Source: an uncultured bacterium (lineage in GTDB: Bacteria > Lernaellota > Lernaellaia > Lernaellales > Lernaellaceae). Taken from it: 25,523 nucleotides of DNA. Below the pieces are notes generated by a model. That model did no database searches and was not told where the DNA came from. It was given only the letters and a program-made list of their open reading frames with translations. Location: contig CAZHPN010000078.1 of assembly GCA_964534375.1 (NCBI GenBank), positions 1-25,523 on the forward strand, written 5' to 3'. Positions 2,955 to 25,523 of the stretch are shown here, one piece after another. The number at the start of each line of letters is the position of its first letter. The first letter of the stretch is position 1. Made by a program: the position numbers and the translations under genes.

Positions 2955-2963
2955 ATTATAACA
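2955..2963 (-). promoter_or_regulatory. Extended -10 promoter (TGtTATAAT) for the Mut7-C gene, probably leaderless
   Basis: Minus strand TGTTATAAT-TAAGTC-ATG: perfect TGnTATAAT 6 nt before the start codon, no SD. Confidence 0.65.
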
Positions 2964-3109
2964 TGCGCAAAGGGTCGGTCCCCGCAGAAGGGGAAAACGG
3001 AAAAAGGCGGCGCGGACCTTGGCAATGGGGGTGGTCGCCGCCACGCACGGGCGATCGAGGTCCGGTTTTTCAGCCTCTCTCAGTTTCTCAGCTACCCACC
3101 CTTCCCTGT

Positions 3110-3138
3110 TTGCCCTGCGGTGCGGCGGCGCTTACAAT
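3110..3138 (+). promoter_or_regulatory. Sigma70-type promoter for the sensor kinase, probably leaderless
   Basis: TTGCCC (3110-3115), 17-bp spacer, TACAAT (3133-3138); ATG follows after 7 nt at 3146 with no SD. Confidence 0.6.
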
Positions 3139-3145
3139 CGCGCGC

Positions 3146-4858
3146 ATGAATTTTCGGCAGACGAAATTTCTGCTCTTCGCGGCGCTGCTGGCGTTTTCGA
3201 TCGGCCCGGTTCTCATGCTGGGCTACCGGATGGCCCGACTGGACGAGCGAGAATTGCGCGAACGCGACATCGCCAACATGGCGACGCTGGCCGACGACGC
3301 CGCGGACATCACCGACAGTTTCGTTGGCGAACGTCTTGGCGACATGCGCGTCGTCGCCCGGGCCGGGCTTGGCCGCTCGCCGGCGGAAGCCGAGCATCGC
3401 AAGAATCTCGTGCGGTCCGTCGTGAACACCTACCCCTTTTACCGAACGGTGTTGATTACCGACGCCGAGGGTCGGGCGACCTCCGCCGTCGCCGGACGGC
3501 CGCCGGCCGACGACAGCCCGGCGCTAAGGCTCGCGGTCGCGGCGGCTCGCGCCGGCCAGGAATACGTCAGCGAGCCCTTTGCGGATCCGGACCGCGGCGA
3601 TTTGCAAATTCTCATCGCCGTGCCGATGGCGGGCGAAGAGTTGCCGAGCGGCGCGATGGCGGCTGGAATCCTGGGCATGGCGCCCTTGGCGGACCGGTTT
3701 CGCCAGGTGCAATTCGGCGAGACCGGCGAGGTGCTGCTCGTGGACGGGCGCGGCCTTCTGCTGCTTTCCAGCCGTCCGGGCCGGCGGAATTTTCACGATG
3801 TTCTGACCCTCGCCCCCGGCGCCGCCCCGACGGGCAACCGCGTCACCGTCGAGCAGACGGATTACCGCGGCAGACGGGTGCTGCGTACGCAACAACGCGC
3901 CATCCTCGTGCCGTGGTGTGCGATTGCGGAGTGCGCCGTCGCCGAGATCGGCGGCAAGATCGGCCGGCTGCATCGGAAGATGATCGGCGTGTCGTTGCTG
4001 TTCCTAAGCGTGGACACGGTGATCGCCTACCTGCTGGCGACGACGATCGTCAACGGCATGCAACGCGCATACGGCCGCGAGCGGCAACTCGAATTTCAGG
4101 TGCTGCAAAAGGACCGCCTGGCATCCACCGGATTGCTGACCACCGGCATGGCGCACGAGTTGAACACGCCGCTCGCCAACGCCCTGTTGTACACGCAACT
4201 GGCCCTGGAAGGCGACTCGGATCGCGGCGCTGCACGGCGCGCCGATTTGGCTGCCGTCGAGAGCGAAATCCAGCAGTGCATTCGCATTGTGAAGAACCTG
4301 TTGGACTTCGCGCGACAGTCGCAAACGCCGGCCGTGACCGCCGACGTCAACACTCTGCTTGAGCGGCTGTTGTTGATCGCCGAGCCGCGTTGCGCATCCA
4401 ACCACATTGCCGTCAAACGAAACTTCGAGCCCGCTTTGCCGGAAGCGGCCGCCGACCCGAGCGTACTCCAACAGGTCTTTGCGAACGTGTGCGCGAACGC
4501 CGTCGAGGCCATGCCGCACGGCGGCGAGCTTTCGGTGACCACGCGCCATTTGCGCGCGGAAAGGAAAATTCGGGTGGAAATCGCCGACACGGGTCCCGGT
4601 GTTCCGCGCGAAGAACTCGGTAAAATCTTTGAACCGTTCTACACAACCAAGAAGGGCCACGGGATGGGCTTGGGGTTGTTTGTCAGCCATGGGATGGTTC
4701 AACATCTGCACGGGGAACTGCGGGTCGCCAACGTCGCGGCCGACGGCGAGCGGAATCGCGGCGGCCCAACGGGCGCGATATTCACGATCGAATTGCCGGC
4801 CGGCGGCGCCCGGCCGCCGGAATCGGCGACGGCGGGCGACGCCGCGGAGGATGGCTAA
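3146..4858 (+). CDS. Membrane sensor histidine kinase with extracytoplasmic Cache-like domain
   Basis: Two hydrophobic segments flank a Cache-like region (YVSEPF, GETGEVLLVD). H-box MAHELNTPL, N-box QVFANVCANAVEAM, G1 DTGPG, F-box FEPFYTTK, G2 GMGLGL. Start chosen at ATG 3146 (MNFRQTK). Confidence 0.92.
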   Translation: MNFRQTKFLLFAALLAFSIGPVLMLGYRMARLDERELRERDIANMATLADDAADITDSFVGERLGDMRVVARAGLGRSPAEAEHRKNLVRSVVNTYPFYRTVLITDAEGRATSAVAGRPPADDSPALRLAVAAARAGQEYVSEPFADPDRGDLQILIAVPMAGEELPSGAMAAGILGMAPLADRFRQVQFGETGEVLLVDGRGLLLLSSRPGRRNFHDVLTLAPGAAPTGNRVTVEQTDYRGRRVLRTQQRAILVPWCAIAECAVAEIGGKIGRLHRKMIGVSLLFLSVDTVIAYLLATTIVNGMQRAYGRERQLEFQVLQKDRLASTGLLTTGMAHELNTPLANALLYTQLALEGDSDRGAARRADLAAVESEIQQCIRIVKNLLDFARQSQTPAVTADVNTLLERLLLIAEPRCASNHIAVKRNFEPALPEAAADPSVLQQVFANVCANAVEAMPHGGELSVTTRHLRAERKIRVEIADTGPGVPREELGKIFEPFYTTKKGHGMGLGLFVSHGMVQHLHGELRVANVAADGERNRGGPTGAIFTIELPAGGARPPESATAGDAAEDG

Positions 4859-4859
4859 G

Positions 4860-6227
4860 ATGCAGTCGGTGAAGATCCTGATCGTCGAGGACGACCCCAA
4901 AATGAGGTCCGCGCTGCTGTCGATTTTGCGCAAGGACGCGTACGAGGTCGACGCCGTCGAAACAGGGGAGCAAGGGCTCGCCCAACTCGCAGTCGCGAGC
5001 TATGACCTGCTGATCACGGACTTGAAACTTCCCGGCATGAGCGGCCTGGAGTTGCTCACCGCCGCGAAGGAATCGTCGCCGGACCTGGTCGCCGTCATGA
5101 TCACGGCGTACGCCTCCGTCGACTCGGCGGTCCAGGCGATCAAGGCCGGGGCGGACGACTATCTTCCCAAGCCGTTCAGCCTTGAGGAAATCCGCCTGGT
5201 CGTGCGCAAAGTGCTCCAGAAGCGGAACCTGATCGCCGAGAACCGCTTTTTGCACGAACAAATTCTGAAGCAACGTTATTCCGGAAACCTCGTCGGCGGG
5301 AGCGAGGCCATGAACGAGGTGCACCAACTCATCGACCGGGTGAAAGACTCGAAGACGACGGTGTTGGTTCTTGGCGAAACCGGAACCGGCAAGGAGTTGG
5401 TGGCGCGCGCGATCCACACCGGCAGCGTGCGCGCCAAGCGGCTTTTTCTGCCGGTCAATTGCGCCGCGTTGAACGAGAATTTGCTGGAAAGCGAACTCTT
5501 CGGCCATGTCAAGGGTTCGTTCACCGGCGCGACGCGCGATAAAACCGGAATTTTCGCCGCCGCCGACGAGGGGACCGTGTTTCTCGACGAGGTCGGCGAT
5601 CTCGGGGCCAATCTGCAACAAAAGCTCCTGCGCGTTCTGCAGGACGGCGAAATCCAGCCGGTGGGCTCCGTGGCGCGAAAAAAGGTCAACGTGCGTGTGA
5701 TCGCCGCGACGAACCGCGACCTGGCCAAGATGGTCGAGGAAAAAACCTTTCGCGAAGATCTGTATTACCGCGTCAACGTGGTATCGATTCGCTTGCCGCC
5801 ATTGCGCGAGCGCCGCGACGACATCGCGCCGCTGGCCGCGCATTTCCTGCGACGATACGCGGCGGAAAACAAGAAAGACATTCACGGGTTTTCCTCCGCG
5901 GCGGTGAAGGTTTTGGAGCAATACAATTGGCCCGGCAACGTCCGCGAATTGGAAAATGCGATCGAACGCGCCGTGCTGTTCGAGGCCGGCGAGATCGTCA
6001 CGTCCGCGAGCCTGCCGCCGACAATCCGCCAGACCGACGTGCCCGTCGGCTCTACGGACAACCTCCCCAAGACAATCGACGAAGTGGTGCGCGAGCACGT
6101 CGAGCAAACGCTGGTGGCGGCCGGCCAAAACAAAGCCAAGGCCGCAGAGATGCTGGGCATCGATCGCTCCTCACTGTGGAGAATGATCAAGAGGGTGCGA
6201 ACCGACAAGAAACCGCCCGACGTCTGA
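4860..6227 (+). CDS. Sigma54-dependent response regulator, NtrC family (REC-AAA+-Fis HTH)
   Basis: REC (ILIVEDD, DLKLPGMSG, KPF), Walker A GETGTGKE, ESELFGHVKGSFTGA, Walker B FLDEVGD, RVIAATNRDL, FREDLYYR, WPGNVREL, HTH NKAKAAEMLGIDRSSLWR. GGAGG lies 9 nt before ATG 4860 (alternative ATG 4851). Confidence 0.95.
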   Translation: MQSVKILIVEDDPKMRSALLSILRKDAYEVDAVETGEQGLAQLAVASYDLLITDLKLPGMSGLELLTAAKESSPDLVAVMITAYASVDSAVQAIKAGADDYLPKPFSLEEIRLVVRKVLQKRNLIAENRFLHEQILKQRYSGNLVGGSEAMNEVHQLIDRVKDSKTTVLVLGETGTGKELVARAIHTGSVRAKRLFLPVNCAALNENLLESELFGHVKGSFTGATRDKTGIFAAADEGTVFLDEVGDLGANLQQKLLRVLQDGEIQPVGSVARKKVNVRVIAATNRDLAKMVEEKTFREDLYYRVNVVSIRLPPLRERRDDIAPLAAHFLRRYAAENKKDIHGFSSAAVKVLEQYNWPGNVRELENAIERAVLFEAGEIVTSASLPPTIRQTDVPVGSTDNLPKTIDEVVREHVEQTLVAAGQNKAKAAEMLGIDRSSLWRMIKRVRTDKKPPDV

Positions 6228-10710: not shown

Positions 10711-12963
10711 ATGTTTGGCGTCCAGGCAACTGCCCGCAAGACAATCGTCGCCGTTATTGCGGCGCTCGCCGGCGTTCTTTGGCTGGGCGGCGTGGGTTGC
10801 CGCTGCCGCGCGCCGTCGGCGCGCCCCACCTTCCCGACGCTGTTCCACGCGGTTTCGAGCAACGGCGCCGACGGCACCATCGCGCCGATCACCATCAACA
10901 ACGAAGTTCGCGAGGCCCTCGCCGCGACCCCCGGCGCCGTCGTGGCGTGGCCCTTTGCGCGGCTGCGGGCGGGGTGCAGTTTGTCGTTCGGGCACGGCAT
11001 TTATTCCGCCGACATGGGGAATTTGATGCCGATTCACTTCACGGTTTACCTGCGCGATATCTCCGGGAAGCTCAGCCTGCTGTATTCCAAATCGACCGGC
11101 GACGATCGCCGCTGGATCGACCGCGAGGTCTCGCTGTCGCCGTTCGTCGGAAAATCCGGGACGCTCATTTTTCGCATCACGTGCGATGCGGATCCGGCTG
11201 GCCCCGGTCAACCCGCCGGAGTGATTCCCGTTTGGAGCAACGCCAGGATCGTCGCGCCCGCGGATGGTTCGCCAGCGGATCGCCCCTCGTTTCTCTGGAT
11301 CACAGTCGACACGCTGCGAGCCGATCACCTGGGTTGCTATGGCTGCGCCCGCCCGACCACGCCGTTTATCGACAGCCTGGCCGCCCAGGGGGTTGTCTAC
11401 GAAGCCGCCTTCTCGCAGGCGCCGTGGACGCAACCGTCTGTGCAATCGATGATGAGTTCGCAGTACCCGCGGCCGGCCGAGGCAAAATACAACCCGAATG
11501 AAGGCCTGAACCGCTTCCTCGATATCCGCCATTCGCACCTGCTGCCGATGGAATTCGAAAACGCCGGTTATACAGTGGCCGCGTTCACAAATATCGAGAG
11601 CGTGTACGCGCCGTTCAGTTACAGCAAGCTCGGCTTCTCCCGGTCCTTCCAGAATTCGACCGGCACGGAAAACTTCCGCGATTGGCTCGGCGCCAACGGC
11701 GGCAAACCGTTTTTCGCCTACGTTCATCTGTTCGGCGCCCACGCGCCCTATTCTTTCGTTCCCGGCATCAGCACGCAGTTCATCGATCAGGAAACGGCGA
11801 AAGCGACCGAAAACGCCACCGAAAACCTGAGCAGCGGTTTCCTCCGGAAGCAGCAACCAGGGCCCGAAGTGACCGCCAATCTCGTCCGCCTTTACGATGG
11901 CCGGATTCTGTTGAACGATCAGGTGGTCAAATATCTGGTCGAAACGCTGGCCGCGCACGGCGCCCTGGACCGAACCTTCATCGTCATCACCGCCGACCAC
12001 GGCGAAGAATTCTGGGAGCACGGGCATTGGGAGCATGGCCACAGCTATTATGACGAGTTGCTCCACGTGCCGCTGATCCTCGTGCCGCCCGGGAAGAACC
12101 CGGGAAAGCGGATCGCCGGAATGACGAGTCTGCTGAACGTCGCGCCGACGCTCCTGAATTACGCCGGGTTGCCCGTGCCGGACGATTATCGCGGCCGGCC
12201 ATTGCAGTTTCGCGAGGAAGACGACGCCGACCCGGTGATCTACGCCGAGAACATGCTGTACGGGCAAGTCGCCGAGGGCGGCGCCGATCGCCCGCGCGAT
12301 TTCGGACTGCGCACGAACGACCTCAAATACGCCAATCTCGGCAACGCAATTCAAGTGTTCGACTTGAAAGCCGATCCGGGCGAACGAAACAACCTTGCGG
12401 CCGTCCCGGAATGGAAAGAGAAGGCCGAAAAGGCGCTGCAGGAGTTTCTGCAAACCGACTACGAAACCGTCGCACAGCGGCAGGCGAATTTCCTGTTTCA
12501 ATCCTCGTCGCCGAAGAAATGGACGCTGAAATTCGCGTCCGATCGCGACGTCATCCCGATTTTTCCCGACGACGGCTTCGATAATGCGCCGGCGATCACC
12601 GCTGCCAAAGGCCGTACGGAATGCAATTTCACGACCGACAAGGGAAAGCCCCTGGTGGTCAAGGTCATTTTGTACAAAGGACTGAAATTGCTCTCGGCGC
12701 AAATTCGCGCGCAGGGAAAGCCCCTGCCCGCCGGCCAATTGGTCCTGCCAGGCGGCCAGGCCGCCGTTTCGCCCGCCGCGTTGCTGAAGAATCTCGCCGC
12801 GCCGGAAGCATTCCGGACGTTGCGGGGCGCGCCGCCCGTCCCAGCCGCGACCGACAATGTGACGATTTGGATCGATTCGTCGGTCAAACGGATTCCGACT
12901 GCCCCAAAGGCCAGCGACGAGGAAACCCGCCGGAAAATTCTTCGATCGCTGGGCTATTTGTAG
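10711..12963 (+). CDS. Exported sulfatase-like (alkaline phosphatase superfamily) protein with Thr at the nucleophile position
   Basis: N-terminal signal or anchor. VDTLRADHLGCYG, TPFIDSLA, WTQPSVQSMMSSQYP (position of CxPxR), HLFGAHAPY, TADHGEEF, HGHSYYDELLHVPL, FDLKADPGE, C-terminal LRSLGYL. Confidence 0.85.
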   Translation: MFGVQATARKTIVAVIAALAGVLWLGGVGCRCRAPSARPTFPTLFHAVSSNGADGTIAPITINNEVREALAATPGAVVAWPFARLRAGCSLSFGHGIYSADMGNLMPIHFTVYLRDISGKLSLLYSKSTGDDRRWIDREVSLSPFVGKSGTLIFRITCDADPAGPGQPAGVIPVWSNARIVAPADGSPADRPSFLWITVDTLRADHLGCYGCARPTTPFIDSLAAQGVVYEAAFSQAPWTQPSVQSMMSSQYPRPAEAKYNPNEGLNRFLDIRHSHLLPMEFENAGYTVAAFTNIESVYAPFSYSKLGFSRSFQNSTGTENFRDWLGANGGKPFFAYVHLFGAHAPYSFVPGISTQFIDQETAKATENATENLSSGFLRKQQPGPEVTANLVRLYDGRILLNDQVVKYLVETLAAHGALDRTFIVITADHGEEFWEHGHWEHGHSYYDELLHVPLILVPPGKNPGKRIAGMTSLLNVAPTLLNYAGLPVPDDYRGRPLQFREEDDADPVIYAENMLYGQVAEGGADRPRDFGLRTNDLKYANLGNAIQVFDLKADPGERNNLAAVPEWKEKAEKALQEFLQTDYETVAQRQANFLFQSSSPKKWTLKFASDRDVIPIFPDDGFDNAPAITAAKGRTECNFTTDKGKPLVVKVILYKGLKLLSAQIRAQGKPLPAGQLVLPGGQAAVSPAALLKNLAAPEAFRTLRGAPPVPAATDNVTIWIDSSVKRIPTAPKASDEETRRKILRSLGYL

Positions 12964-15128: not shown

Positions 15129-15431
15129 CTACCAGCGGTTGTTGCGTCCGCCGCCGCCGCCACTGCGGCCGCCGCCGTCACGGGGCTTGTCCTGGGCCTC
15201 GTTCACCTTAATGGCCCGACCATCGAGTTCCCGGCCATCCAACGCACTGATCGCCTTCGCGGCGTCTTCCGCCGCGGCGAAGGTGACGAACCCGAATCCG
15301 CGCGAACGGCCGGTGTCACGGTCCGTGATGACCTTGGCTTCCGTGATTTCGCCGTGAGGGGCGAACGCCGCTTGGAGACGAGCATCCGTCGTATCCCAAC
15401 TCAAACCGCCTACGAACAACTTCTTCGACAT
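15129..15431 (-). CDS. RRM (RNP-1) RNA-binding protein with Gly-rich tail
   Basis: RNP2 LFVGGL, RNP1 RGFGFVTF, LDGRAIKVNEA, tail GGGRSGGGGGRNNRW; 100 aa from ATG 15431. Confidence 0.95.
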   Translation of the reverse strand: MSKKLFVGGLSWDTTDARLQAAFAPHGEITEAKVITDRDTGRSRGFGFVTFAAAEDAAKAISALDGRELDGRAIKVNEAQDKPRDGGGRSGGGGGRNNRW

Positions 15432-15663
15432 GTCTTCGATCTTTCTTTTCACGCTCGTCGCCTTTAGGGACGGCGTAATTCGTGGCGGGGAAAAACGCCC
15501 CGCCGGCGCGTGAGCGGCCACCGCGGCCGTCCATTCGACGCCCATTTTAGCGAACCGTTCGTCTTGAGAGGATGAAACCTACGCGAGGCGCTCGGGTCGA
15601 AAAACAAGCGGGATTTCCTTGAAATCCACTCCACTTCCGAAAACTATTTTCGGTAGATGACGC

Positions 15664-15767: not shown

Positions 15768-17429
15768 TCAGCTTGCCGCCGGCGCCGCCCCACGCACGAG
15801 ATCCGTCGCGCCCGCGGGCGACTCCGCCCTGGCCGGCGCGGGCCGGAAGCGCGTCACGATCGTCCCCGGCTGCCGCAGGTTGCCAATCAGCCGAATGCGC
15901 GCCGCCTCGATCGCCGCCAGCGCCAACGCGGCCGCGGTTTTCGCGCGCTGCACGGCGTCGGCTGGGCCGAACGTTTCGCGGAAGCGCGCCAGCAACGTTT
16001 CGGCGTACTCGCGTTCCAAACGGTTGTGCGCAAACCGGCGAATGACGTGCAGCGCCGGGTAATATTCGCGGCAGATGCGCGCGAAGTATTCGTGGCGCGC
16101 GATCAGCCGCGGCTCGGTCGCGTCGCGGGTCGAGAGAAAACCGTTCAGATTCGTCTCGATGAGCCGCGCCAGCGAACAGCCGAGTTCGTCCCAGGCCCGG
16201 CGAAACGCCGCACGGAGGTAGTCCTCGGATTCCGCCGGCGTGAAGTGCGGGTGCTTGAACCAGATGCGGCCCTGGCCGTGCCGCTCCTCATAGGGCACGT
16301 CGTCACGCATCATGCCGCGCGCTTCAAAATCTTTGGTCAACGTCGTGCCGGGCATCGGGCCGAGCTGCATGAACTGGATGAAGTCGGGCCCGGTTTCGAT
16401 CGCGAAGTCGATGTCGCGGTGGATCGTTTCTTTCGTGTGGTCTTCGGTGAAGAGGATCACCGACCCGAGCACCGTAATGCCCGCGCCGCGCAATTCGCCG
16501 ACGAGTTGGCGAAAGTCGATGCCGCGGTTCTTCTCGTAGCCGCTGGCGACGCCTTCCATGCCCAGCCAGATGAACGTCACGCCGAGGCGCTTCATGAACT
16601 CGACGCCCACGTCGCGGATCGTCTCCGCCGAACTGAAAATCGAGAACGTGTACCGCTTGCCGCCGCGTTCCATTTCGGTCACCAGATCTTCCGCGCGCCG
16701 GCGCTGCTTGAGGAAATTTTCGTCCATCACGAAAAAGTCCTGGCAGCCCCGCTCGCGTTCGACGCGCTCGCAAAACTCGTAGATCTCGCGGCCCGTCTTG
16801 AAAAAGGCCGTATATTCGCGGTCGAAAAAGTGACTGGTGCAGCAGAATTTGCAGCCGTTGACGCAGCCGACGCCCGGCATCAGCACGACGCCGTCGCCGG
16901 AAAGCGGGATGCCGATCAGATGTTTGTTGAACGCCGCCGGCACGATCGGATGCGCGACCGGGCGCGTCGGGTCGTCGCCGAGCAGCAAGCGCATAAAGCG
17001 CACGCCCTCGCCGCGGCAGACGTGATCGCAATCGATGCGCGTGGCGACGTCGGGGATCGTCGTGCCATGGCCGCCGAGCACGATTTTCGCCTGCGGCGCG
17101 TGCTCACGGATCAGCGCCGCCATGCGTTGCGCTTTGAGGAAATTGGGCACGATGAAGGAGATGCCGATGTAGTCGTAGCGATTTTGCGTAATTTCGCGCA
17201 CGAACCTTTTCTGCGACGGGAAGTCGAGCACGGTCGTGTCCGCGCGCAGGTTCTCGGCGATCAGTTGCAGGCCGAACGTTTGGTGGTGAAACCGCAGCGA
17301 GAAGAGCCCCTGCTCGCGCGTCACCTGGTTGTGAAACAGTTCGACGACATTTTCTTTGCGGCCGTATTCGTCGTCCACGCCGAACGGGCCGAATACCGAG
17401 GTGAGTAAAATCTTAGGCGTCGCACGCAC
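15768..17429 (-). CDS. Cobalamin-dependent radical SAM protein
   Basis: N-terminal B12-binding-like region (YDYIGISF...KIVLGGHG), CxxxCxxC motif GCVNGCKFCC, FFVMDENF, WLGMEG. GTG start at 17429 with an AGGAG SD. Confidence 0.88.
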   Translation of the reverse strand: MRATPKILLTSVFGPFGVDDEYGRKENVVELFHNQVTREQGLFSLRFHHQTFGLQLIAENLRADTTVLDFPSQKRFVREITQNRYDYIGISFIVPNFLKAQRMAALIREHAPQAKIVLGGHGTTIPDVATRIDCDHVCRGEGVRFMRLLLGDDPTRPVAHPIVPAAFNKHLIGIPLSGDGVVLMPGVGCVNGCKFCCTSHFFDREYTAFFKTGREIYEFCERVERERGCQDFFVMDENFLKQRRRAEDLVTEMERGGKRYTFSIFSSAETIRDVGVEFMKRLGVTFIWLGMEGVASGYEKNRGIDFRQLVGELRGAGITVLGSVILFTEDHTKETIHRDIDFAIETGPDFIQFMQLGPMPGTTLTKDFEARGMMRDDVPYEERHGQGRIWFKHPHFTPAESEDYLRAAFRRAWDELGCSLARLIETNLNGFLSTRDATEPRLIARHEYFARICREYYPALHVIRRFAHNRLEREYAETLLARFRETFGPADAVQRAKTAAALALAAIEAARIRLIGNLRQPGTIVTRFRPAPARAESPAGATDLVRGAAPAAS

Positions 17430-17558
17430 GGGAAATTCTCCTTTTTCGTCGTTTCGCAATGTTCCCGGCGGCATCTTCCCAAATTCGGCGGCGGCCGATT
17501 GTCAAAGATCTGTAAAAGCGCGGGGCGAGGATTTCGATACTTCCGTAAAAGGCGTTAC

Positions 17559-17695: not shown

Positions 17696-19102
17696 TCACG
17701 CTCTCGGCGTGATCCATTTCGCCCGGTGGACTTTCGCCTCGTCGAGCGTCTTGCCAAGAACCTCGATCTGCTTGCGCACGGCTTCCGGCGCGGTTCCGCC
17801 GGCGACGTTGCGGCGCGCGATCGACGCGGCGTAGTCGATCGCGAAATCGCGGCCGGCCAGTTCCGGAAAGCGCTGGGCCAGGTCGGCCGGCGCGAGGTCG
17901 AGCAAACTGCGGGAGGCCGCCTCCAGTTCGCCGATCAGCCGCGCCACGCGTTCGTGTGCGAGGCGGAACGGCGCGCCGGCGCGGACCAACTCGTCGGCAA
18001 GATCCGTGGCCAGCATTTCGCCGCGCAGCGCCGCCGCGAGGCGGTCGAGCGCGAATTCGGCGTCGCCGAGCGCCGCGCGAAACACCCGCGCGGCCAACAG
18101 GGCCGTGTCCAGCGCATCAAACAGCGCGGTTTTGTCCTCTTGCAGGTCTTTGACGTACGACGGCGGCGCTCCCTTGAGCAGCGCCAGCAGCGCCGTCAGG
18201 TCGCCGATAACCCGCGCCGCCTTGCCGCGCACCAGTTCCATCGCATCCGGATTGCGCTTCTGCGGCATCATCGACGAGCCCGTCGACCATTGGTCGCCGA
18301 AACGCACGCCGCCGAACGCCGGATTCGCCCAGATGACGAACTGCTCGGCGTAGCGCGACAGCCGCGTGCAGAGCAGCGCGCAGCCCGCGGCGATTTCCGC
18401 CGCGAAATCGCGATCGCCGATCGCGTCGAGCGCGTTTTCGCAAATCCCGTCGAAACCGAGCGCGGCGGCCAGCCGCGCGCGGTCGACCGGGAAGCCCGAG
18501 CCCGCCAGCGCGCCGGAACCGAGCGGGCAACGGTTGGCGCGCGCCCGCGCCTGCGTCAGCCGTTCGAGATCGCGCGCCAGGCCGAACGCCAACGACAGCA
18601 GGAAAAATCCCAGCGTGATCGGCTGCGCCGGCTGCAAGTGCGTTTCGCCGGCGATCGGCGCCGTCGCGTGCCGCGCAGCCAATTCCACGAGCGCGCGGGC
18701 CAGGGCGTCGATTTCGTCGAGCAACTCGGCGAGCGCGGCGGCCGCGTACAGCCGCACGTCGCAGACGACCTGGTCGTTGCGGCTGCGGCCGGCGTGGATC
18801 TTCGCGCCGGTTTCGCCGAGCTTTTCGGTGAGCAGCCGCTCGACCAGCGTGTGGACGTCTTCATCCGGCGGCAGCGGCGCGAAGGCGCCGGCCGCCGCCT
18901 GCGCGACAATCTGGTCGAGCGCGCCTTCGATGGCGGCCTGCTCGGCGGCGGTCAGCAGGCCGAGACGGCGCAGTTCGCCGGCCCACGCCTTGTTCGTCTG
19001 CGCGTCAAAGGGCAGCAAACGAAAATCGGTCGGCAGCGAACGATTGATCGCGTCCATCAGGCCCCGTTGATCGGCGGCGATGCGGCCGCGATACAGCGTC
19101 AT
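17696..19102 (-). CDS. argH: Argininosuccinate lyase
   Basis: EDVH, HAGRSRNDQV, THLQPAQP, PLGSGALAG, fumarase-family signature TGSSMMPQKRNPD, DLQEDK; starts 2 bp after the argG stop. Confidence 0.97.
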   Translation of the reverse strand: MTLYRGRIAADQRGLMDAINRSLPTDFRLLPFDAQTNKAWAGELRRLGLLTAAEQAAIEGALDQIVAQAAAGAFAPLPPDEDVHTLVERLLTEKLGETGAKIHAGRSRNDQVVCDVRLYAAAALAELLDEIDALARALVELAARHATAPIAGETHLQPAQPITLGFFLLSLAFGLARDLERLTQARARANRCPLGSGALAGSGFPVDRARLAAALGFDGICENALDAIGDRDFAAEIAAGCALLCTRLSRYAEQFVIWANPAFGGVRFGDQWSTGSSMMPQKRNPDAMELVRGKAARVIGDLTALLALLKGAPPSYVKDLQEDKTALFDALDTALLAARVFRAALGDAEFALDRLAAALRGEMLATDLADELVRAGAPFRLAHERVARLIGELEAASRSLLDLAPADLAQRFPELAGRDFAIDYAASIARRNVAGGTAPEAVRKQIEVLGKTLDEAKVHRAKWITPRA

Positions 19103-19104
19103 CG

Positions 19105-20376
<1,272 letters not shown>

Positions 20377-20389
20377 GAAATCCTCCGCG

Positions 20390-20839
20390 TTATGGGGTCG
20401 AATCCGGCGCAATCGCCGCGAGCCGGGCCAGAAGTTTTTTCTGCGCGGCGCGGCCGTCGCAGGCGATGAACAGCGTATCGTCGCCGGCCACCGTGCCGGC
20501 CGACTCCGGCCAGCGGGCGCTGTCGATGGCCAGCGCCGTCGCGCTCGCCTCGCCCACCGACGTGACCACGACGATCAGATTGTGGCCCGCCGGCCGCACG
20601 TGGCGAATCAACGCCGCCAGGCGCGGCGCCGGGTCGCCGGGCGGCGGCGCGCCGTTCGGCAACGCGTAGCGGCCGCCCGTCTTGACCAGGCCGAGCGCCG
20701 CGATGTCGCGCGAGATCGACGCCTGCGTGCAATCGGCCCCGCGGCGGCGCAGCAGCCGCACGAGCTGGCCCTGCGTCGCGATCGGCCGCTCGCGAATCAG
20801 CTCTTCGATCAACCGTCGGCGGCGCAGCGTTTCAGGCAT
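20390..20839 (-). CDS. argR: Arginine repressor
   Basis: wHTH TQGQL...[14 protein letters not shown] and C-terminal arginine-binding GTVAGDDT. Confidence 0.93.
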
Positions 20840-21914
20840 GGGCTTTTCCCGCCGGCAACCGGGCGAGGCACTGGCCCGTCAGCCGGATCAAATCCGCCAC
20901 GGCCGCCGTGAAATCCCGCAGCGCGATGCGCTCGTCCGGCGCGTGCGAAAACGTCGGGTCGCCCGGACCGAGCTTGAGCCCCGGAATGCCGCGCCGCTGC
21001 AAAAAGGCCCAATCGCTTGCGGCGTCCGACGCGAACACCGAGGCCTGCGGCAATGCCTCCTTCGCGGCGAGCGCGAGCGGATGCGCCGGCGGCGTCTCGC
21101 ACGGCGGCCACAGGTCGGAGCGCACGGCGACCGTCGACTCGACGGCCTCGCGGATCAGCGCGAGCAGTTCCTCGGTTTCGTACGCCGGCGTCGTGCGCAC
21201 ATCGACCAGCGCCGTCGCCACGGGCGCGGTCATGTTGTCGGCGACGCCCGCCTGGAGGCGCGTCGGCGTGATCTTCACGCGGCCGAGCGACGGATGCGCG
21301 CGCGGCGGCCGCAGCGTTTCGAGCGCGACGAGATCGCGCGCGAGCACGTGAATGGCGTTCGCGCCGTGGGTGCGCGCCGCGTGGCCTTGCGGGCCGCGCG
21401 CGGTCAGCTCGAGCACGAGCAGACCGCGCTGCGACGAGGCGATGTTCATGCGCGTCGGTTCGCCGACGAGCCCCGCATCGATGGGCCCGATCGCATCGAG
21501 CAGGCGCGGCAGCGAGGGGTCGTCGCCCTCCTCGCCGATCGAGAGCGCGACGACGAGCCGGCCGCGCGGCAGGCCGGCCTCGGCGAAATGGCGGGCGACG
21601 GCGAGAAACGCGGCGCACGAGGCGCGCGCGTCGACGGCGCCGCGGCCGTGGAGCCAGCCGTCGACGACGGCGCCGGCGTAGGGCGGCGTGCGCCAGCCGT
21701 CGCCCGCGGGCACCGTGTCCAGATGCGAGCAGCAAAGCAGCGTCGGGCCCGGCGCGACGCCCGGCAGGGTCACGATCACGCCGTCCGGCGACACGACGGG
21801 CGCCAGGCCGAGTTCGTCGACCAAAGCGGCGGCCTCGGCGAGGATGCCCGACTCGCAGCCGGTCACGCCTTCGACGGCCACCAGCCGGCGCAATATTTCG
21901 GCCGCTTCGATCAT
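20832..21914 (-). CDS. argE: M20 metallopeptidase, acetylornithine (or acetylcitrulline) deacetylase
   Basis: SHLDTV, GRGAVDA, GEE, GEPT, GHAA, SHAPDERI metal-binding motifs; located inside the arg operon. Confidence 0.8.
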   Translation of the reverse strand: MIEAAEILRRLVAVEGVTGCESGILAEAAALVDELGLAPVVSPDGVIVTLPGVAPGPTLLCCSHLDTVPAGDGWRTPPYAGAVVDGWLHGRGAVDARASCAAFLAVARHFAEAGLPRGRLVVALSIGEEGDDPSLPRLLDAIGPIDAGLVGEPTRMNIASSQRGLLVLELTARGPQGHAARTHGANAIHVLARDLVALETLRPPRAHPSLGRVKITPTRLQAGVADNMTAPVATALVDVRTTPAYETEELLALIREAVESTVAVRSDLWPPCETPPAHPLALAAKEALPQASVFASDAASDWAFLQRRGIPGLKLGPGDPTFSHAPDERIALRDFTAAVADLIRLTGQCLARLPAGKAHA

Positions 21915-22828
21915 CGCCCCGCTTCCTGGTAGCTCTGTTTTTCGCGTTGGCTGACGATCATCGTGCCGCAGCCTTCGCCGGTGAACGCTTCGACCAGCAG
22001 CGACGCCGGCGCCGCGCCGTTAATGATGTGCGTGCGTTTGACGCCGCCCGCCGCGGCGCGCAGGCAGGCCTCGACCTTGATCCGCATGCCGCCACCGATC
22101 GCGCCCGAGGCGAGCAGGCCGGCCAGGTCGTCGGCGTCGCCAAAGGGCACGAGGGTGCTGGGGTCGGCCGGATCGCGCAGCACGCCGCGCGCGTCGGTGA
22201 GGAAGATCAGTTTTTTGGCGCGCAGGGCGACGGCGAGCGCCTCGGCGACCGCGTCGGCGTTGACGTTCAGCGGCCGGCCCTGGGCGTCGCCGGCGAGGCA
22301 GGCGACGACGGGGACGAAGCCGGCGTCGAGCAGGCGTTCGAGCAGCGTCGGATCGACGCGCACGATGTCGCCGACGTGGCCGAAATCGACCTCGCGTTCG
22401 GCGCCGTCGTCGTCGCGCACGAGCCGCGGCGGGCGCTTGTCGGCCACGAGCAGGCCGCCGTCGAGGCCGGTCAGGCCGACCGGGCGCGAGCCGCAGCGCC
22501 GCAGCAACGACACCAGGTCGACGTTGACCTGGCCGGCGAACGCCATCTTCACGGCCTCCAGCGCGCCGTCGTCGGTGACGCGCCGGCCGCCGACCTGCAC
22601 CGGCTCGAAGCCGAGCCGCCGCGACAGCGCGCTCGCCTGCGCGCCGCCGCCGTGCGCCACGACGACGCGGATGTTCAGATCCGCCAGCAGCGCGCATTGC
22701 TCCGCGACGTTCTGCGCCGCGTGCGCGTCGGCGAGCACCGCGCCGCCGATTTTGATGACGAACACCTCCTGCCGATACAGGCGAATGTACGGCGCCGCCC
22801 CTTGCAGCGCCTCGGCGATCCCGTTCAT
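21911..22828 (-). CDS. argB: Acetylglutamate kinase
   Basis: APYIRLYRQEVFVIKIGG, VAHGGG, GRRVTD, NVNAD, LTDARG, GGMRIKV, EAFTGEGCGT; ATGA overlaps on both sides. Confidence 0.95.
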   Translation of the reverse strand: MNGIAEALQGAAPYIRLYRQEVFVIKIGGAVLADAHAAQNVAEQCALLADLNIRVVVAHGGGAQASALSRRLGFEPVQVGGRRVTDDGALEAVKMAFAGQVNVDLVSLLRRCGSRPVGLTGLDGGLLVADKRPPRLVRDDDGAEREVDFGHVGDIVRVDPTLLERLLDAGFVPVVACLAGDAQGRPLNVNADAVAEALAVALRAKKLIFLTDARGVLRDPADPSTLVPFGDADDLAGLLASGAIGGGMRIKVEACLRAAAGGVKRTHIINGAAPASLLVEAFTGEGCGTMIVSQREKQSYQEAGR

Positions 22829-23991
22829 GCCGTTCCTTCCTGCAGGACCGCCGCGAGCGCCTCGACGAACCGGTCCGCGTCTTCGATGGTGAGATTGAGC
22901 GGCGGCAGCAGGCGCAGCATGTCCGGCGCCGCGCTGTCGCCCACGATGATGCCCCGCGCCAGCAGCGCCGCGCGCACCGGCGCCGCCGGCCGATCGAGCC
23001 GGACGCCGACCAGCAGGCCCAAACCCTGCACCAGCCGCACGCCCGGTATCGCCGGCAGCCGCGCCAGCCAATGCGCGCCGACGCGCGCCGCGTTGGCGAA
23101 CATGTCTTCTTCCTGCATCGCTTCCAGATTGGCGACCGCCGCCGCGCACGCCAGCGGGCCGCCGCCAAACGTGCTGCCGAGCGCGCCCGGTTTCGCCGCG
23201 GCGGTCGTCGCCGCGTCGGCGAGCACCGCGCCGATCGGCACGCCGGCGGCCAGGCCCTTGGCCAACGTCGTCAGATGCGGCGCGACGCCCAGGCGCTGGC
23301 CGGCGGTGAACGCGCCGCAGCGGCCGGCGCCGCACTGCACCTCGTCGAAAATCAATTTCGCCCCGCGCCGGTCGCAGAGCGCGCGCAGGCCGGCGAGATA
23401 CTCGGTCGTCGCCGGCCGTCCGCCGCCGAGCCCTTGCACCGGCTCGATAATGATGGCGGCGCACGTCTCGTCGAGCAGCGCCGCGGCCGCGTCGAGATCG
23501 CCGAACGGCGCCAGCCGCGCCCCGGCGTAGAGCGGCGCGCCGCCGGCGGCGGCCAGCGCGCGAAATTTCGGGAAGCCCGCCAGCGACAGCGTCAGCATCG
23601 TCCGGCCGTGAAAGCCTTCGCTGACCGCGACGACGTTCGGCCGGCCGGTCGCCAGCCGCGCCAGCGTCAGCGCGTTTTCGTTCGCTTCCGCGCCGCTGTT
23701 GCATAAAAATACGGCGGTCATGCCCGCGGGCCCGAGCGCCAGCAGGCGGGCGCACAGTTCGCGCCGCACGGGCAGATCGACAGCGTTGGAGTAAAAAATC
23801 AGCCGCCCGGCCTGCGCGGCGATCGCTGCCGTCACACGCGGATGGCAATGGCCGGTCGAGGCGACCGCGTGGCCGCCGTAGAGGTCGAGATAATCGCGGC
23901 CGGCGTCGTCGATGACGTGCGGGCCGCGGCCGGCGACGAGCGTCAGCGGCATGCGCGTGTAGACGGGCATTTCCGGCGGTGCGCTCAACAT
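22825..23991 (-). CDS. argD: Acetylornithine aminotransferase (class III PLP)
   Basis: YLDLYGG, GHCHP, NSGAEANE, FHGRT, IEPVQG, FDEVQCGAGRCG, AKGLAAG (PLP Lys), STFGGGP; ATG 23991 overlaps the argC stop. Confidence 0.92.
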   Translation of the reverse strand: MLSAPPEMPVYTRMPLTLVAGRGPHVIDDAGRDYLDLYGGHAVASTGHCHPRVTAAIAAQAGRLIFYSNAVDLPVRRELCARLLALGPAGMTAVFLCNSGAEANENALTLARLATGRPNVVAVSEGFHGRTMLTLSLAGFPKFRALAAAGGAPLYAGARLAPFGDLDAAAALLDETCAAIIIEPVQGLGGGRPATTEYLAGLRALCDRRGAKLIFDEVQCGAGRCGAFTAGQRLGVAPHLTTLAKGLAAGVPIGAVLADAATTAAAKPGALGSTFGGGPLACAAAVANLEAMQEEDMFANAARVGAHWLARLPAIPGVRLVQGLGLLVGVRLDRPAAPVRAALLARGIIVGDSAAPDMLRLLPPLNLTIEDADRFVEALAAVLQEGTA

Positions 23992-25022
23992 GGGAAAGCT
24001 CCGGGGTGCATCAGGCCCGCGGTTTCCGGCAGGCCGAGCGCCAGGTTCATGTTCTGGATCGCCTGCCCCGCCGCGCCTTTGACGAGGTTGTCGAGCGCGA
24101 GCGTCGCCTCGATTTCGTCGCCCTGCTGCTTGACGTGCACGCAGACGAAATTCGTCGCCGCGACTTCGGCGACCTGCGGCGGGCGCGCCAGCGCGTCGAC
24201 GAACGGCTCGGCCGCGTAGGCGCCGGCGTAGAGCCGCGCGATGTCGCGCGCCGCAAAGCCCGCGTCGCGCAGGTGCGCGGTCGCGTGAATGCCGCGGACG
24301 AACGGGCCGGAATGCGCGAGCAGGCGCGCGCGCCGCGGCTGGCCGGCGACCTGCGTCAGGGTTTGATCGATCTCCGCCTCGTGCGGGTGCGCCAGCATTT
24401 TGTAGGCGTAGAAATTGCCGTCGCGAAACGGATGGTGCGTCGTCGGCTTGGGCAGCGCGCCCGAGCCGGACGAGCCGGTGACGCCGTGGACCGCGACGAG
24501 TTCCGGCAGCAGGCCGGCGCTCGCCAGCGGCAGCAGCAGCAATTGCACCGCGGTCGCGAAGCAGCCGGGGTTGGCGATCAGGCGTGCGCCGCGCACCGCG
24601 TCGCGAAACGCCTCGGGCAGGCCGTAGACGAAGTCGGCCGCGAGTTCGGGGCAGACGTGCTCGCCGTAGTGGGCGCGAAACACGGCCGGGTCGCGCAAGC
24701 GAAAATCCGCGCCGAGGTCGACGACCAAACGCGGCCCGGCGGCAAGAATCTCGCGCATCACCCGCTGGCTGTCGCCGTGCGGCAACGCGGCGAAGACGAC
24801 ATCGGCGTCGGCTGCGGCCTCGCCGGCCGGCCGCGCGACAAAGGCGATCGGCGGCAGCCGCCGCAGGCTCGGGTGCGTCTCGTGCGCCATCTTGCCGGCC
24901 TGGCTTTGCGAAACGGCGACGATGCGCGCGACGTCCGGGTGCAGCGACAGCAACCGCATGAGTTCGCCCGCGACCAAGCCGCCGGCGCCGAGCACGACGG
25001 TCTGCAAACCGGCCGCCGTCAT
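23985..25022 (-). CDS. argC: N-acetyl-gamma-glutamyl-phosphate reductase
   Basis: ALPHG, VDLGADFRL, YGLPE, catalytic ANPGCFATA, DNLVKGAAGQAIQNMN; ATG 25022 overlaps the upstream stop (ATGA). Confidence 0.95.
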   Translation of the reverse strand: MTAAGLQTVVLGAGGLVAGELMRLLSLHPDVARIVAVSQSQAGKMAHETHPSLRRLPPIAFVARPAGEAAADADVVFAALPHGDSQRVMREILAAGPRLVVDLGADFRLRDPAVFRAHYGEHVCPELAADFVYGLPEAFRDAVRGARLIANPGCFATAVQLLLLPLASAGLLPELVAVHGVTGSSGSGALPKPTTHHPFRDGNFYAYKMLAHPHEAEIDQTLTQVAGQPRRARLLAHSGPFVRGIHATAHLRDAGFAARDIARLYAGAYAAEPFVDALARPPQVAEVAATNFVCVHVKQQGDEIEATLALDNLVKGAAGQAIQNMNLALGLPETAGLMHPGAFPC

Positions 25023-25523
25023 GCCGCCGCTCCCTTCCGCCGGCAATGCTCGAACACCGCCGCCGCGAGGCCCGCCAAGTCATAGCGCGCGTTGTGCGCC
25101 GCGAGTTGCAGCGAGCCGCGAATGAAATCGACGCCGACCGAGTTGTCGGTCACCGGGCCGGTCGCGATGTCGATCGCCAGGCCGAAGCGCTCTTCGTAAA
25201 TGCGTTTGGCGCCGAGAATCGCCACCGGGTCGGGCGCCGCGACGACGTGGCAGCAGGCGCGCGACATCAACTCCGCGTCGTCGAGCAGCGCGCCGACGCC
25301 GTACTCGCCGAGGATGCCGTCGCCGAGTTCCGCGACGATCACATCGGGCTTCGCCTTGGCGAGGTGGTTCAGCAGCCCGCGCGCGATCGGCCGCACGTCG
25401 ACGTTCCAGGTGGCGACGATGCCGGCGTCGTTGAAATCGACGGCCTCGATCGCGCCGGCGTCGTGCATGCCCAGCGTGTCGCGCATCAGGCTGACGCCGG
25501 TCATCTTGCACGCGCCGACGCGC
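25019..25523 (-). CDS. Uncharacterised protein, DUF1611/DgcN-like (P-loop NTPase-fold) C-terminal half; 5' end outside the window
   Basis: Frame is open to the window edge: RVGACKMTGVSLMRD...DAGA...DFNDAG..AT...DVIVAELGDGILG...ATGPVTDN. I recognise this pattern from DUF1611-related proteins (from memory, not searched). Its stop overlaps the argC ATG. Confidence 0.6.
   Translation of the reverse strand, partial: RVGACKMTGVSLMRDTLGMHDAGAIEAVDFNDAGIVATWNVDVRPIARGLLNHLAKAKPDVIVAELGDGILGEYGVGALLDDAELMSRACCHVVAAPDPVAILGAKRIYEERFGLAIDIATGPVTDNSVGVDFIRGSLQLAAHNARYDLAGLAAAVFEHCRRKGAAA

Follow-up and report, generated by a model that had tools for sequence, protein, structure and literature searches.

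The stretch of DNA studied here (25,523 nucleotides (nt), contig CAZHPN010000078.1 of assembly GCA_964534375.1 from an uncultured Lernaellota bacterium; hereafter the window) carries an arginine biosynthesis cluster in which a gene that we call orfX precedes argC. We propose that orfX encodes the missing first enzyme of the pathway, a predicted N-acyl-L-glutamate synthase that has neither the GNAT fold of ArgA nor the ArgJ fold, and we give this reading a probability of roughly 0.7. In the proposed route, OrfX would make N-acylglutamate from L-glutamate, ArgB, ArgC and ArgD would convert it to N-acyl-ornithine, an enzyme of the M20 family would strip off the acyl group, and an ornithine carbamoyltransferase encoded elsewhere in the genome would complete the pathway together with ArgG and ArgH. 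A step-1 role for this protein family is already in print, and our analysis is confirmatory in this respect. What appears to be new, judged from the sequences, is that orfX is combined in this lineage with a canonical ornithine carbamoyltransferase and not with the N-acylornithine-type enzyme ArgF', and that OrfX retains the presumed catalytic residues of BioD, which leaves open an ATP-dependent ligation. The first-pass annotation of the window, made from its letters alone, had suggested that a DUF1611-related OrfX acetylates L-glutamate as step 1 of arginine biosynthesis. The role has gained good comparative support, the DUF1611 label could not be upheld, and the acyl group need not be acetyl.

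As already noted at first pass, only the C-terminal 167 residues of OrfX are visible in the window: the minus-strand frame at 25019-25522 has 167 codons, ends with TGA at 25019-25021 and is open at its 5' end at the window edge. All motifs quoted for this fragment (CKMTGVSLMRD, HDAGA, DFNDAG and VAELGDG) are indeed present. The window is an entire contig (G000:C78), and its final 55 bases (25469-25523) are identical to G000:C238:1-55 and are shared with no other contig of the assembly. The remaining 205 N-terminal codons, needed to retrieve the full gene, were located on this second contig of the same assembly, in a frame of 205 codons whose terminal 18 residues are the same 18 that begin the window fragment. 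The contig break within orfX looks like a break in the assembly graph and not like a true gene disruption. In eight related genomes, both halves form a single uninterrupted gene of 350-355 amino acids (aa), and the complete protein should have about 354 aa. The two halves were kept unjoined and were analyzed separately; a homologue (L020:9733-10794, 59-67% identical to the two halves) served as the full-length stand-in and provides the residue numbering used below. The frame is a genuine gene and no artefact of high GC content, because homologues match it in all eight related loci (44-63% identity to the fragment) and because the database protein P0126 matches the window half with 46% identity over 157 aa (E 9e-38) as well as the C238 half with 50% identity over 201 aa (E 9e-56).

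The family to which OrfX belongs comprises 2,492 proteins at E ≤0.001 among 8,000 scored candidates, and its clusters at 50% identity number 1,746 at E 0.001 and 286 at E 1e-30. It can be found in the genomes of at least 599 species, the best 80 of which are mostly labelled Gemmatimonadales and in some cases Myxococcota or Deltaproteobacteria bacterium. In the ESM Atlas, clusters of this family are commonest in Pseudomonadota and Acidobacteriota; one of them is automatically named 'DUF1611 domain-containing', and another carries PF07755 on 11% of its members. Every named member is called 'hypothetical protein'.

The position of the gene is conserved. OrfX is encoded directly 5' of argC in all eight related loci (one of them, with the order argR-orfX-argC-argD-?-argB, from a different phylum), in 79 of 80 loci from genome contigs (the best 80 of at least 599), and in three of four divergent loci in a sample of Gemmatimonadota. 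At the remaining one of the 80 loci, no arg gene was detected 3' of orfX. The place before argC is thus kept across at least three phylum-level groups, and the linkage of homologues to argC, which the first-pass annotation could only propose for checking, is conserved across phyla.

Furthermore, the absence of argA and argJ from the window, pointed out at first pass, extends to the whole source genome. Searches for classical ArgA and for ArgJ found neither of them genome-wide: no ArgJ was detected, the ArgA model TIGR01890 matched the argB kinase only, and no vertebrate-type NAT domain was found. Of the anticorrelation with argA and argJ that was proposed for checking, the part concerning ArgJ was seen: orfX and ArgJ never occur in one genome across the samples from two phyla. 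Among 17 species genomes of the bacterium's own phylum, 14 possess orfX, and ArgJ is present only in G008, which has no orfX and carries the cluster argH-argJ-argB-argD-argC. In two genomes of this phylum, G001 and G012 (96% complete), no match was found for orfX, ArgJ or the argB kinase domain, and these bacteria may be arginine auxotrophs. In a 121-genome sample of Gemmatimonadota, the phylum of a Gemmatimonadales carrier of orfX, 34 genomes have orfX, 44 have ArgJ, none has both, and none has ArgA above the cut-off (without the unpublished genome G096, the count for orfX is 33 of 120). Likewise, ArgJ was not found in four further orfX carriers, one of them with a complete 6-Mb chromosome.

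The gene sets of the Gemmatimonadota sample differ in other ways as well. Carriers of ArgJ have a much weaker argB-like match (E ~1e-19 versus 1e-42 in carriers of orfX) and often a GNAT match ~1-2 kb away, and the same kinase-plus-GNAT pair is present in several genomes that have neither orfX nor ArgJ. The start of the arginine pathway seems to be encoded by no fewer than three different sets of genes within this phylum.

The prediction in print comes from the 2026 GapMind study (PLoS Genet, PMC13759103; preprint 10.1101/2024.10.14.618325), whose sections on this gene propose the Steroidobacter protein ACG33_RS14135 as an alternative N-succinylglutamate synthase. The grounds given are that this hypothetical protein is encoded 'virtually always' within arg operons and never alongside ArgA, that Foldseek reveals a weak similarity to DgcN (7XRJ), and that a succinyl-type residue occupies position 92 in 90% of 70 ArgF' proteins encoded nearby (10.1101/2024.10.14.618325). 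In Steroidobacter itself, ArgE is absent and the gene for the predicted synthase is present, and Steroidobacter denitrificans is reported to be able to grow in a defined medium (10.1101/2024.10.14.618325). The plasmid archive of the study contains a construct for the Steroidobacter gene; its insert, read by eye from the plasmid map, has the motifs of the family and long stretches identical to P0126. Because both halves of OrfX match P0126 at the identities given above, and P0126 shares these stretches with the insert, we assign OrfX to the family of the Steroidobacter protein and hence to the N-acylglutamate synthases predicted by GapMind. Our literature searches on DUF1611, DgcN, N-acetyl-D-glutamate and acetylglutamate synthase combined with Gemmatimon* found no experimental work on the orfX family.

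In the window, the arg genes are arranged in the order orfX-argC-argD-argB-argE (M20)-argR-argG-argH, all on the minus strand, an order that Pfam and NCBIfam confirmed (Table 1). They overlap or nearly abut, as originally described: there are three ATGA overlaps, including the one between the stop codon of orfX and the ATG of argC, two overlaps of 7 and 8 nt, and gaps of 2 and ~13 nt. Upstream of the orfX start on C238 (locus L002, 634-690, minus strand), a sigma-70-like promoter can be recognized, in which a spacer of 17 nt separates TTGACA from TATATA. An exact TGAAT-N4-ATTCA palindrome (TGAATAAATATTCA, AT-rich) lies 3' of the TATATA, 35 nt before the orfX start, and is followed by an AGGAG ribosome-binding site. 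We take TGAAT-N4-ATTCA to be the core of the classical ARG box; with up to one mismatch, it does not occur on either strand of the 25.5-kb window. With the promoter and the exact ARG box upstream of its start, orfX is the first gene of a translationally coupled operon under the control of the arginine repressor. Of the 18 loci tested, 10 have ARG-like boxes (up to two mismatches) at a distance of 27-66 nt 5' of orfX. The loci without such a box are L017 (sole match at -142), L022, L035, L122, L123, L125, L045 and L047; in the last two, orfX is not the first gene.

The clusters of Gemmatimonadales (argG-orfX-argC-argD-argF'-argB-M20-argH-argR) contain a transcarbamoylase, identified in locus L047 as an enzyme of N-acylornithine type (NF003384, 415 bits versus a cut-off of 288). 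In contrast, no transcarbamoylase is encoded in the window cluster or in five similar loci among the 80 (L029, L030, L034, L035, L040). The only two transcarbamoylases of the assembly are a canonical ornithine carbamoyltransferase on contig C23 (TIGR00658, 385 bits versus 281) and PyrB. The idea that OrfX itself could be the missing transcarbamoylase was ruled out by the canonical ArgF on C23. With this enzyme in place of ArgF', the M20 enzyme would have to act on acyl-ornithine. It also follows that the acyl group cannot be read here from ArgF'. Two weak hints make succinyl slightly more likely than acetyl: Gemmatimonadales orthologues with 60-65% identity adjoin ArgF', read in print as succinyl-specific, and the M20 enzyme scores with models of DapE, a desuccinylase, at least as well as with ArgE (NCBIfam: 109 and 103 bits for DapE-type models, 97 bits for ArgE, all below the cut-offs). 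A route via the carrier protein LysW was considered as well and rejected. The candidate (C219:1456-1560, plus strand) matches Zn_ribbon_LysW with 31.3 bits (cut-off 27) and is a CxxC...CxxC zinc ribbon within a long frame, with no acidic LysW tail in the stretch read. Nothing in the frame list of this contig, which was not scanned with family models, suggests lysine or arginine genes, and the zinc ribbon is probably not an amino-group carrier protein.

Table 1. Coordinates of the orfX-arg cluster and of other regions of the window (positions refer to the window unless a contig is named).
Feature	Position	Strand	Remarks
orfX, N-terminal 205 codons	G000:C238:1-615	-	GTG start
orfX, C-terminal 167 codons and stop	25019..25523	-	P-loop domain from the conserved Lys-x-Thr-Gly motif onwards
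argC	23985..25022	-	Pfam Semialdhyde_dh and Semialdhyde_dhC_1; ATG overlaps orfX stop (ATGA)
argD, acylornithine aminotransferase (class III)	22825..23991	-	Pfam Aminotran_3; likely ATG overlaps argC end by 7 nt
argB, N-acylglutamate kinase	21911..22828	-	TIGR00761, 206 bits versus cut-off 151; ATGA overlap with argD
M20 deacylase in ArgE position	20832..21914	-	Pfam/NCBIfam; ATGA overlap with argB
argR, arginine repressor	20390..20839	-	Pfam Arg_repressor and Arg_repressor_C; 8-nt overlap with the M20 gene
argG, argininosuccinate synthase	19105..20376	-	Pfam; ~13-nt gap from argR
argH, argininosuccinate lyase	17696..19102	-	Pfam; 2-nt gap from argG
Regions of the remaining window genes named in the text	2963-6227; 10711-12963; 1213-2948	+; +; -	

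Note that the NCBIfam transaminase models matching ArgD all remain under their cut-offs. Downstream of argH, genes for a B12-binding radical SAM protein (15768-17474, minus strand) and a small RRM-type RNA-binding protein (15129-15545, minus strand) are present. The remaining window looks ordinary. Among its products are a histidine kinase with a Cache domain, accompanied by a sigma-54 response regulator, a sulfatase, a phosphohydrolase with an HD domain and a protein with a Mut7-C RNase domain.

The structure of the full-length homologue was modelled with AlphaFold2 on the basis of a 70-sequence alignment (predicted local distance difference test (pLDDT) 97.6, predicted template-modelling score (pTM) 0.94). 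In this model, residues 1-150 form an all-beta domain and residues 155-354 an alpha/beta SIMIBI P-loop domain of the BioD/DUF1611 type. The matches in an exhaustive structural comparison cover only approximately residues 151-353, i.e. the P-loop domain, and include the DUF1611 proteins 2g0t (Z 17.7) and 2obn (Z 16.3), the BioD structures 4a0f (Z 16.5), 3of5 (Z 16.4) and 1a82 (Z 16.2), DgcN (7xrj, Z 15.3) and CTP synthase (Z 15.0). With the whole model, Foldseek placed SRP-type (signal recognition particle) GTPases at the top and DUF1611 2obn 32nd, all with TMq ~0.38; DUF1611 is not singled out by Foldseek alone. In hhalign, a thin profile of six true DUF1611 proteins gave 93.4% probability (E 2.5e-7, 103 columns) and one BioD 91.1% (E 1.1e-6, 141 columns). 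Since BioD scores the same, neither the fold nor the remote profile likeness is specific to DUF1611. Thus, of the relationship to DgcN and DUF1611 suspected at first pass, a remote likeness of the P-loop domain stands, and BioD is equally close. A sequence-profile search of solved structures returned P-loop matches to FtsY/SRP, BioD and MobB at E ~1e-4, with no DUF1611 entry among the 44 matches at E ≤10. The sole match of a second alignment profile to solved structures, a P450, was judged to be due to chance.

At the level of domain models, PF07755 (DUF1611_C) reached 19.3 bits on the C238 half (cut-off 25) and was not found on the window half; on three full-length homologues it scored 13.5-18.2 bits. 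In these matches, no more than ~36-48 of 201 profile positions are aligned. PF17396 (DUF1611_N) gave no match at E ≤1 in OrfX or the homologues. True DUF1611 proteins score 212-236 bits with PF07755 and 79-100 bits with PF17396. The other sub-threshold Pfam matches of OrfX are to the P-loop families MobB, CbiA and AAA_26, and an NCBIfam scan of both halves (E ≤0.1) detected P-loop matches to MobB and CobB only and no BioD model. Because PF07755 stays below its cut-off and PF17396 is absent, OrfX does not belong to DUF1611 in the strict sense, contrary to its original assignment to a DUF1611-related subfamily, and represents a separate family that combines a beta domain of unrecognized fold with a P-loop domain of the BioD/DUF1611 type. 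The N domain, all-beta both in the whole-protein model and when modelled alone (pLDDT 90.3), had no fold match at Z ≥5 among 48,161 chains; its best match, to the C domains of LexA or the lambda repressor, had Z 3.5, and a new fold is not thereby proven.

In an alignment of 70 diverse family members (27-66% identical to the reference), P86, G170, K171, K193 and E252 are invariant. This set includes the Walker A G-K, after which position 172 is Thr in 69 sequences and Ser in one. K193 is a second Lys located after strand 2, and E252 is the Glu of the ELGDG motif. Besides, D202 is replaced by Glu in two sequences and R75 by Lys in two, the other 68 having Asp and Arg, respectively; S13 and E53 are conserved in 67 sequences each.

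For the predicted synthase, two chemistries have to be weighed. In one of them, the P-loop domain would bind the phosphates of an acyl-coenzyme A (acyl-CoA), and the acyl group would be moved to the amino group of L-glutamate, as DgcN reportedly does with D-glutamate; within the proposed role, such a transfer is the chemistry that we favour, without calling it probable. The other is an ATP- or GTP-dependent ligase reaction, in which succinate or acetate would be converted to an acyl phosphate that is attacked by the amino group of L-glutamate, without a CoA thioester; the products would be N-acylglutamate, ADP and phosphate. This chemistry, which we regard as possible but doubtful, fits the Walker A G-K-[T/S] of all 70 members and the invariant K193 and E252. 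According to the hhalign alignment, K171-T172 correspond to the GKT of BioD, K193 to the Lys of its F-K-P-V and E252 to the Glu of its VEGAGG, whereas in true DUF1611 proteins the corresponding places are taken by GKMT and ATGQTG, without the Lys; moreover, OrfX has no DUF1611_N domain. What we take to be the catalytic set of BioD is kept in OrfX: an extended P-loop (GTxxxxGKT), a Lys that follows strand 2 and the Glu of an E-G-x-G-G-like motif. The fold matches at Z 13-16.5 include BioD, CTP synthase and formyl-tetrahydrofolate synthetase, enzymes that use ATP to activate an oxygen by phosphorylating it. On the other hand, the Walker Lys and the EGQG Glu are kept in DUF1611 too, and their presence does not necessarily imply the use of ATP; nucleotide binding by OrfX is only predicted; and the sole characterized remote relative acting on glutamate, DgcN, is named an acetyltransferase in the title of its structure entry. 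If OrfX were a ligase with a substrate-binding beta domain of unseen fold that feeds the classical ornithine route (M20 enzyme plus canonical ArgF), it would constitute a new enzyme class, a prospect that we put forward tentatively and consider rather unlikely.

Several observations weigh against a synthase role for OrfX. The absences refer to a source genome that is 94.4% complete and consists of 381 contigs. Five of the 34 orfX-positive Gemmatimonadota (G041, G062, G086, G157, G158) have weak matches to the GNAT part of ArgA (E 1e-11 to 1e-14), and a short GNAT-type synthase among the generic acetyltransferases of the genome is possible. The co-occurrence counts come from related genomes and are not independent, and the pattern in the own phylum may result from a single switch. 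The corresponding table of the GapMind study lists experimental evidence for its prediction as 'no' (PMC13759103). The analogy to the chemistry of DgcN is weak, because OrfX has no Rossmann-like N domain, has GKT where DUF1611 has GKMT, and carries an extra Lys absent from DUF1611. In G086, a 32% identical paralogue (L124, G086:C21, 6805-7944, plus strand) is located away from arg genes. Finally, the anticorrelation with ArgJ is equally expected of a helper of ArgE: since genomes with ArgJ need neither ArgA nor ArgE, exclusion alone cannot separate a step-1 enzyme from such a helper.

The paralogue of G086 lies directly 5' of the gene for an 803-aa PGA_cap protein (CapA, poly-gamma-glutamate capsule synthesis) and of an ABC transporter, and the orfX family may have a second, glutamate-related role. 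This neighbourhood, with no arg gene in it, and the lack of a characterized family member would also suit a function of OrfX that has nothing to do with arginine, the transcript being merely shared. The place before argC in at least three phylum-level groups, the translational coupling to argC and the ARG box at the orfX promoter make this reading highly improbable.

A helper could be an accessory NTPase, for instance a SIMIBI-type protein that inserts metal into the M20 deacylase or assists its assembly, or a partner protein through which ArgB or ArgC is regulated. Metallochaperone GTPases of the same fold class (HypB, UreG and MeaB) are matched at Z 12-15, and the exclusion of ArgJ suits anything tied to the linear route of the ArgE type. 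Yet orfX is kept in clusters without an M20 gene (L016/L030, L122, L123, L125), which therefore favours a step-1 role over an ArgE helper, and Steroidobacter possesses the gene without ArgE (10.1101/2024.10.14.618325). Furthermore, the nearest fold matches are enzymes (DUF1611, BioD) and not G3E GTPases, and step 1 would be left without an enzyme, so that we consider a helper unlikely. Still less likely is an ornithine acyltransferase that recycles the acyl group from N-acyl-ornithine to glutamate, corresponding to the second activity of ArgJ, with another enzyme priming the pathway. Such a function would agree with the mutual exclusion with ArgJ and with the absence of the M20 gene from some clusters, but in most clusters, including that of the window, the M20 gene is found beside orfX and would be made redundant by recycling, and the priming synthase would still be missing. 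We know of no P-loop enzyme that catalyzes acyl transfers of this kind.

If OrfX is an N-acyl-L-glutamate synthase, its family would be one more, unrelated way of carrying out the first step of the arginine pathway, used by large and mostly uncultured groups of soil and sediment bacteria. Genome-based metabolic models would then wrongly score the carriers as arginine auxotrophs, because all named members are annotated as 'hypothetical protein'. The lineage studied here would add a case of this enzyme working alongside a canonical ornithine carbamoyltransferase; should its product here be N-acetylglutamate, complementation may be easier with this lineage.

Among the known systems, the closest one is the family predicted by GapMind, which shares with OrfX the place in arg operons, the absence of ArgA and the remote fold link to DgcN. 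The Steroidobacter protein (A0A127FCT3) has ~355 aa, as OrfX; the link between them runs via P0126, which was aligned with both halves of OrfX and compared by eye with the Steroidobacter insert. The two differ in their setting: the GapMind clusters contain ArgF', from which its authors infer succinyl intermediates, whereas in the window cluster ArgF' is missing and a canonical ArgF is encoded elsewhere. ArgA (GNAT, with or without a kinase-like domain) and the bifunctional ArgJ correspond to OrfX in the proposed reaction and the position in the pathway. However, OrfX has a P-loop architecture without sequence or fold similarity to them, and a Pfam scan detected no GNAT or ArgJ domain in OrfX or its homologues.

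DgcN is the D-glutamate N-acetyltransferase of the DgcN-DgcA pathway, according to the title of PDB entry 7XRJ and to passages citing this work. OrfX resembles it and the other DUF1611 proteins (PF17396 plus PF07755; 7XRJ, 2G0T, 2OBN) in the P-loop fold, with 181-186 residues aligned, approximately the size of the P-loop domain, and the proposed product of OrfX, N-acylglutamate, is the same kind of molecule. In contrast, the motifs GKT, K-x-TGV and ELGDG of OrfX stand against GKMT, ATGQTG (no Lys) and EGQG..HP in DUF1611, the N domain of DgcN is Rossmann-like whereas the 150 N-terminal residues of OrfX are all-beta, and DgcN acts in catabolism on a D-substrate, while the setting of OrfX is biosynthetic, with a presumed L-substrate. 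BioD (TIGR00347; 1A82, 3OF5, 3FGN) is as good a fold match as DUF1611 (Z 16.2-16.5) and shares with OrfX the residues discussed above. It is, however, a single domain of ~225-240 aa without an N-terminal beta domain, and its genomic context is the synthesis of biotin, that of OrfX the synthesis of arginine.

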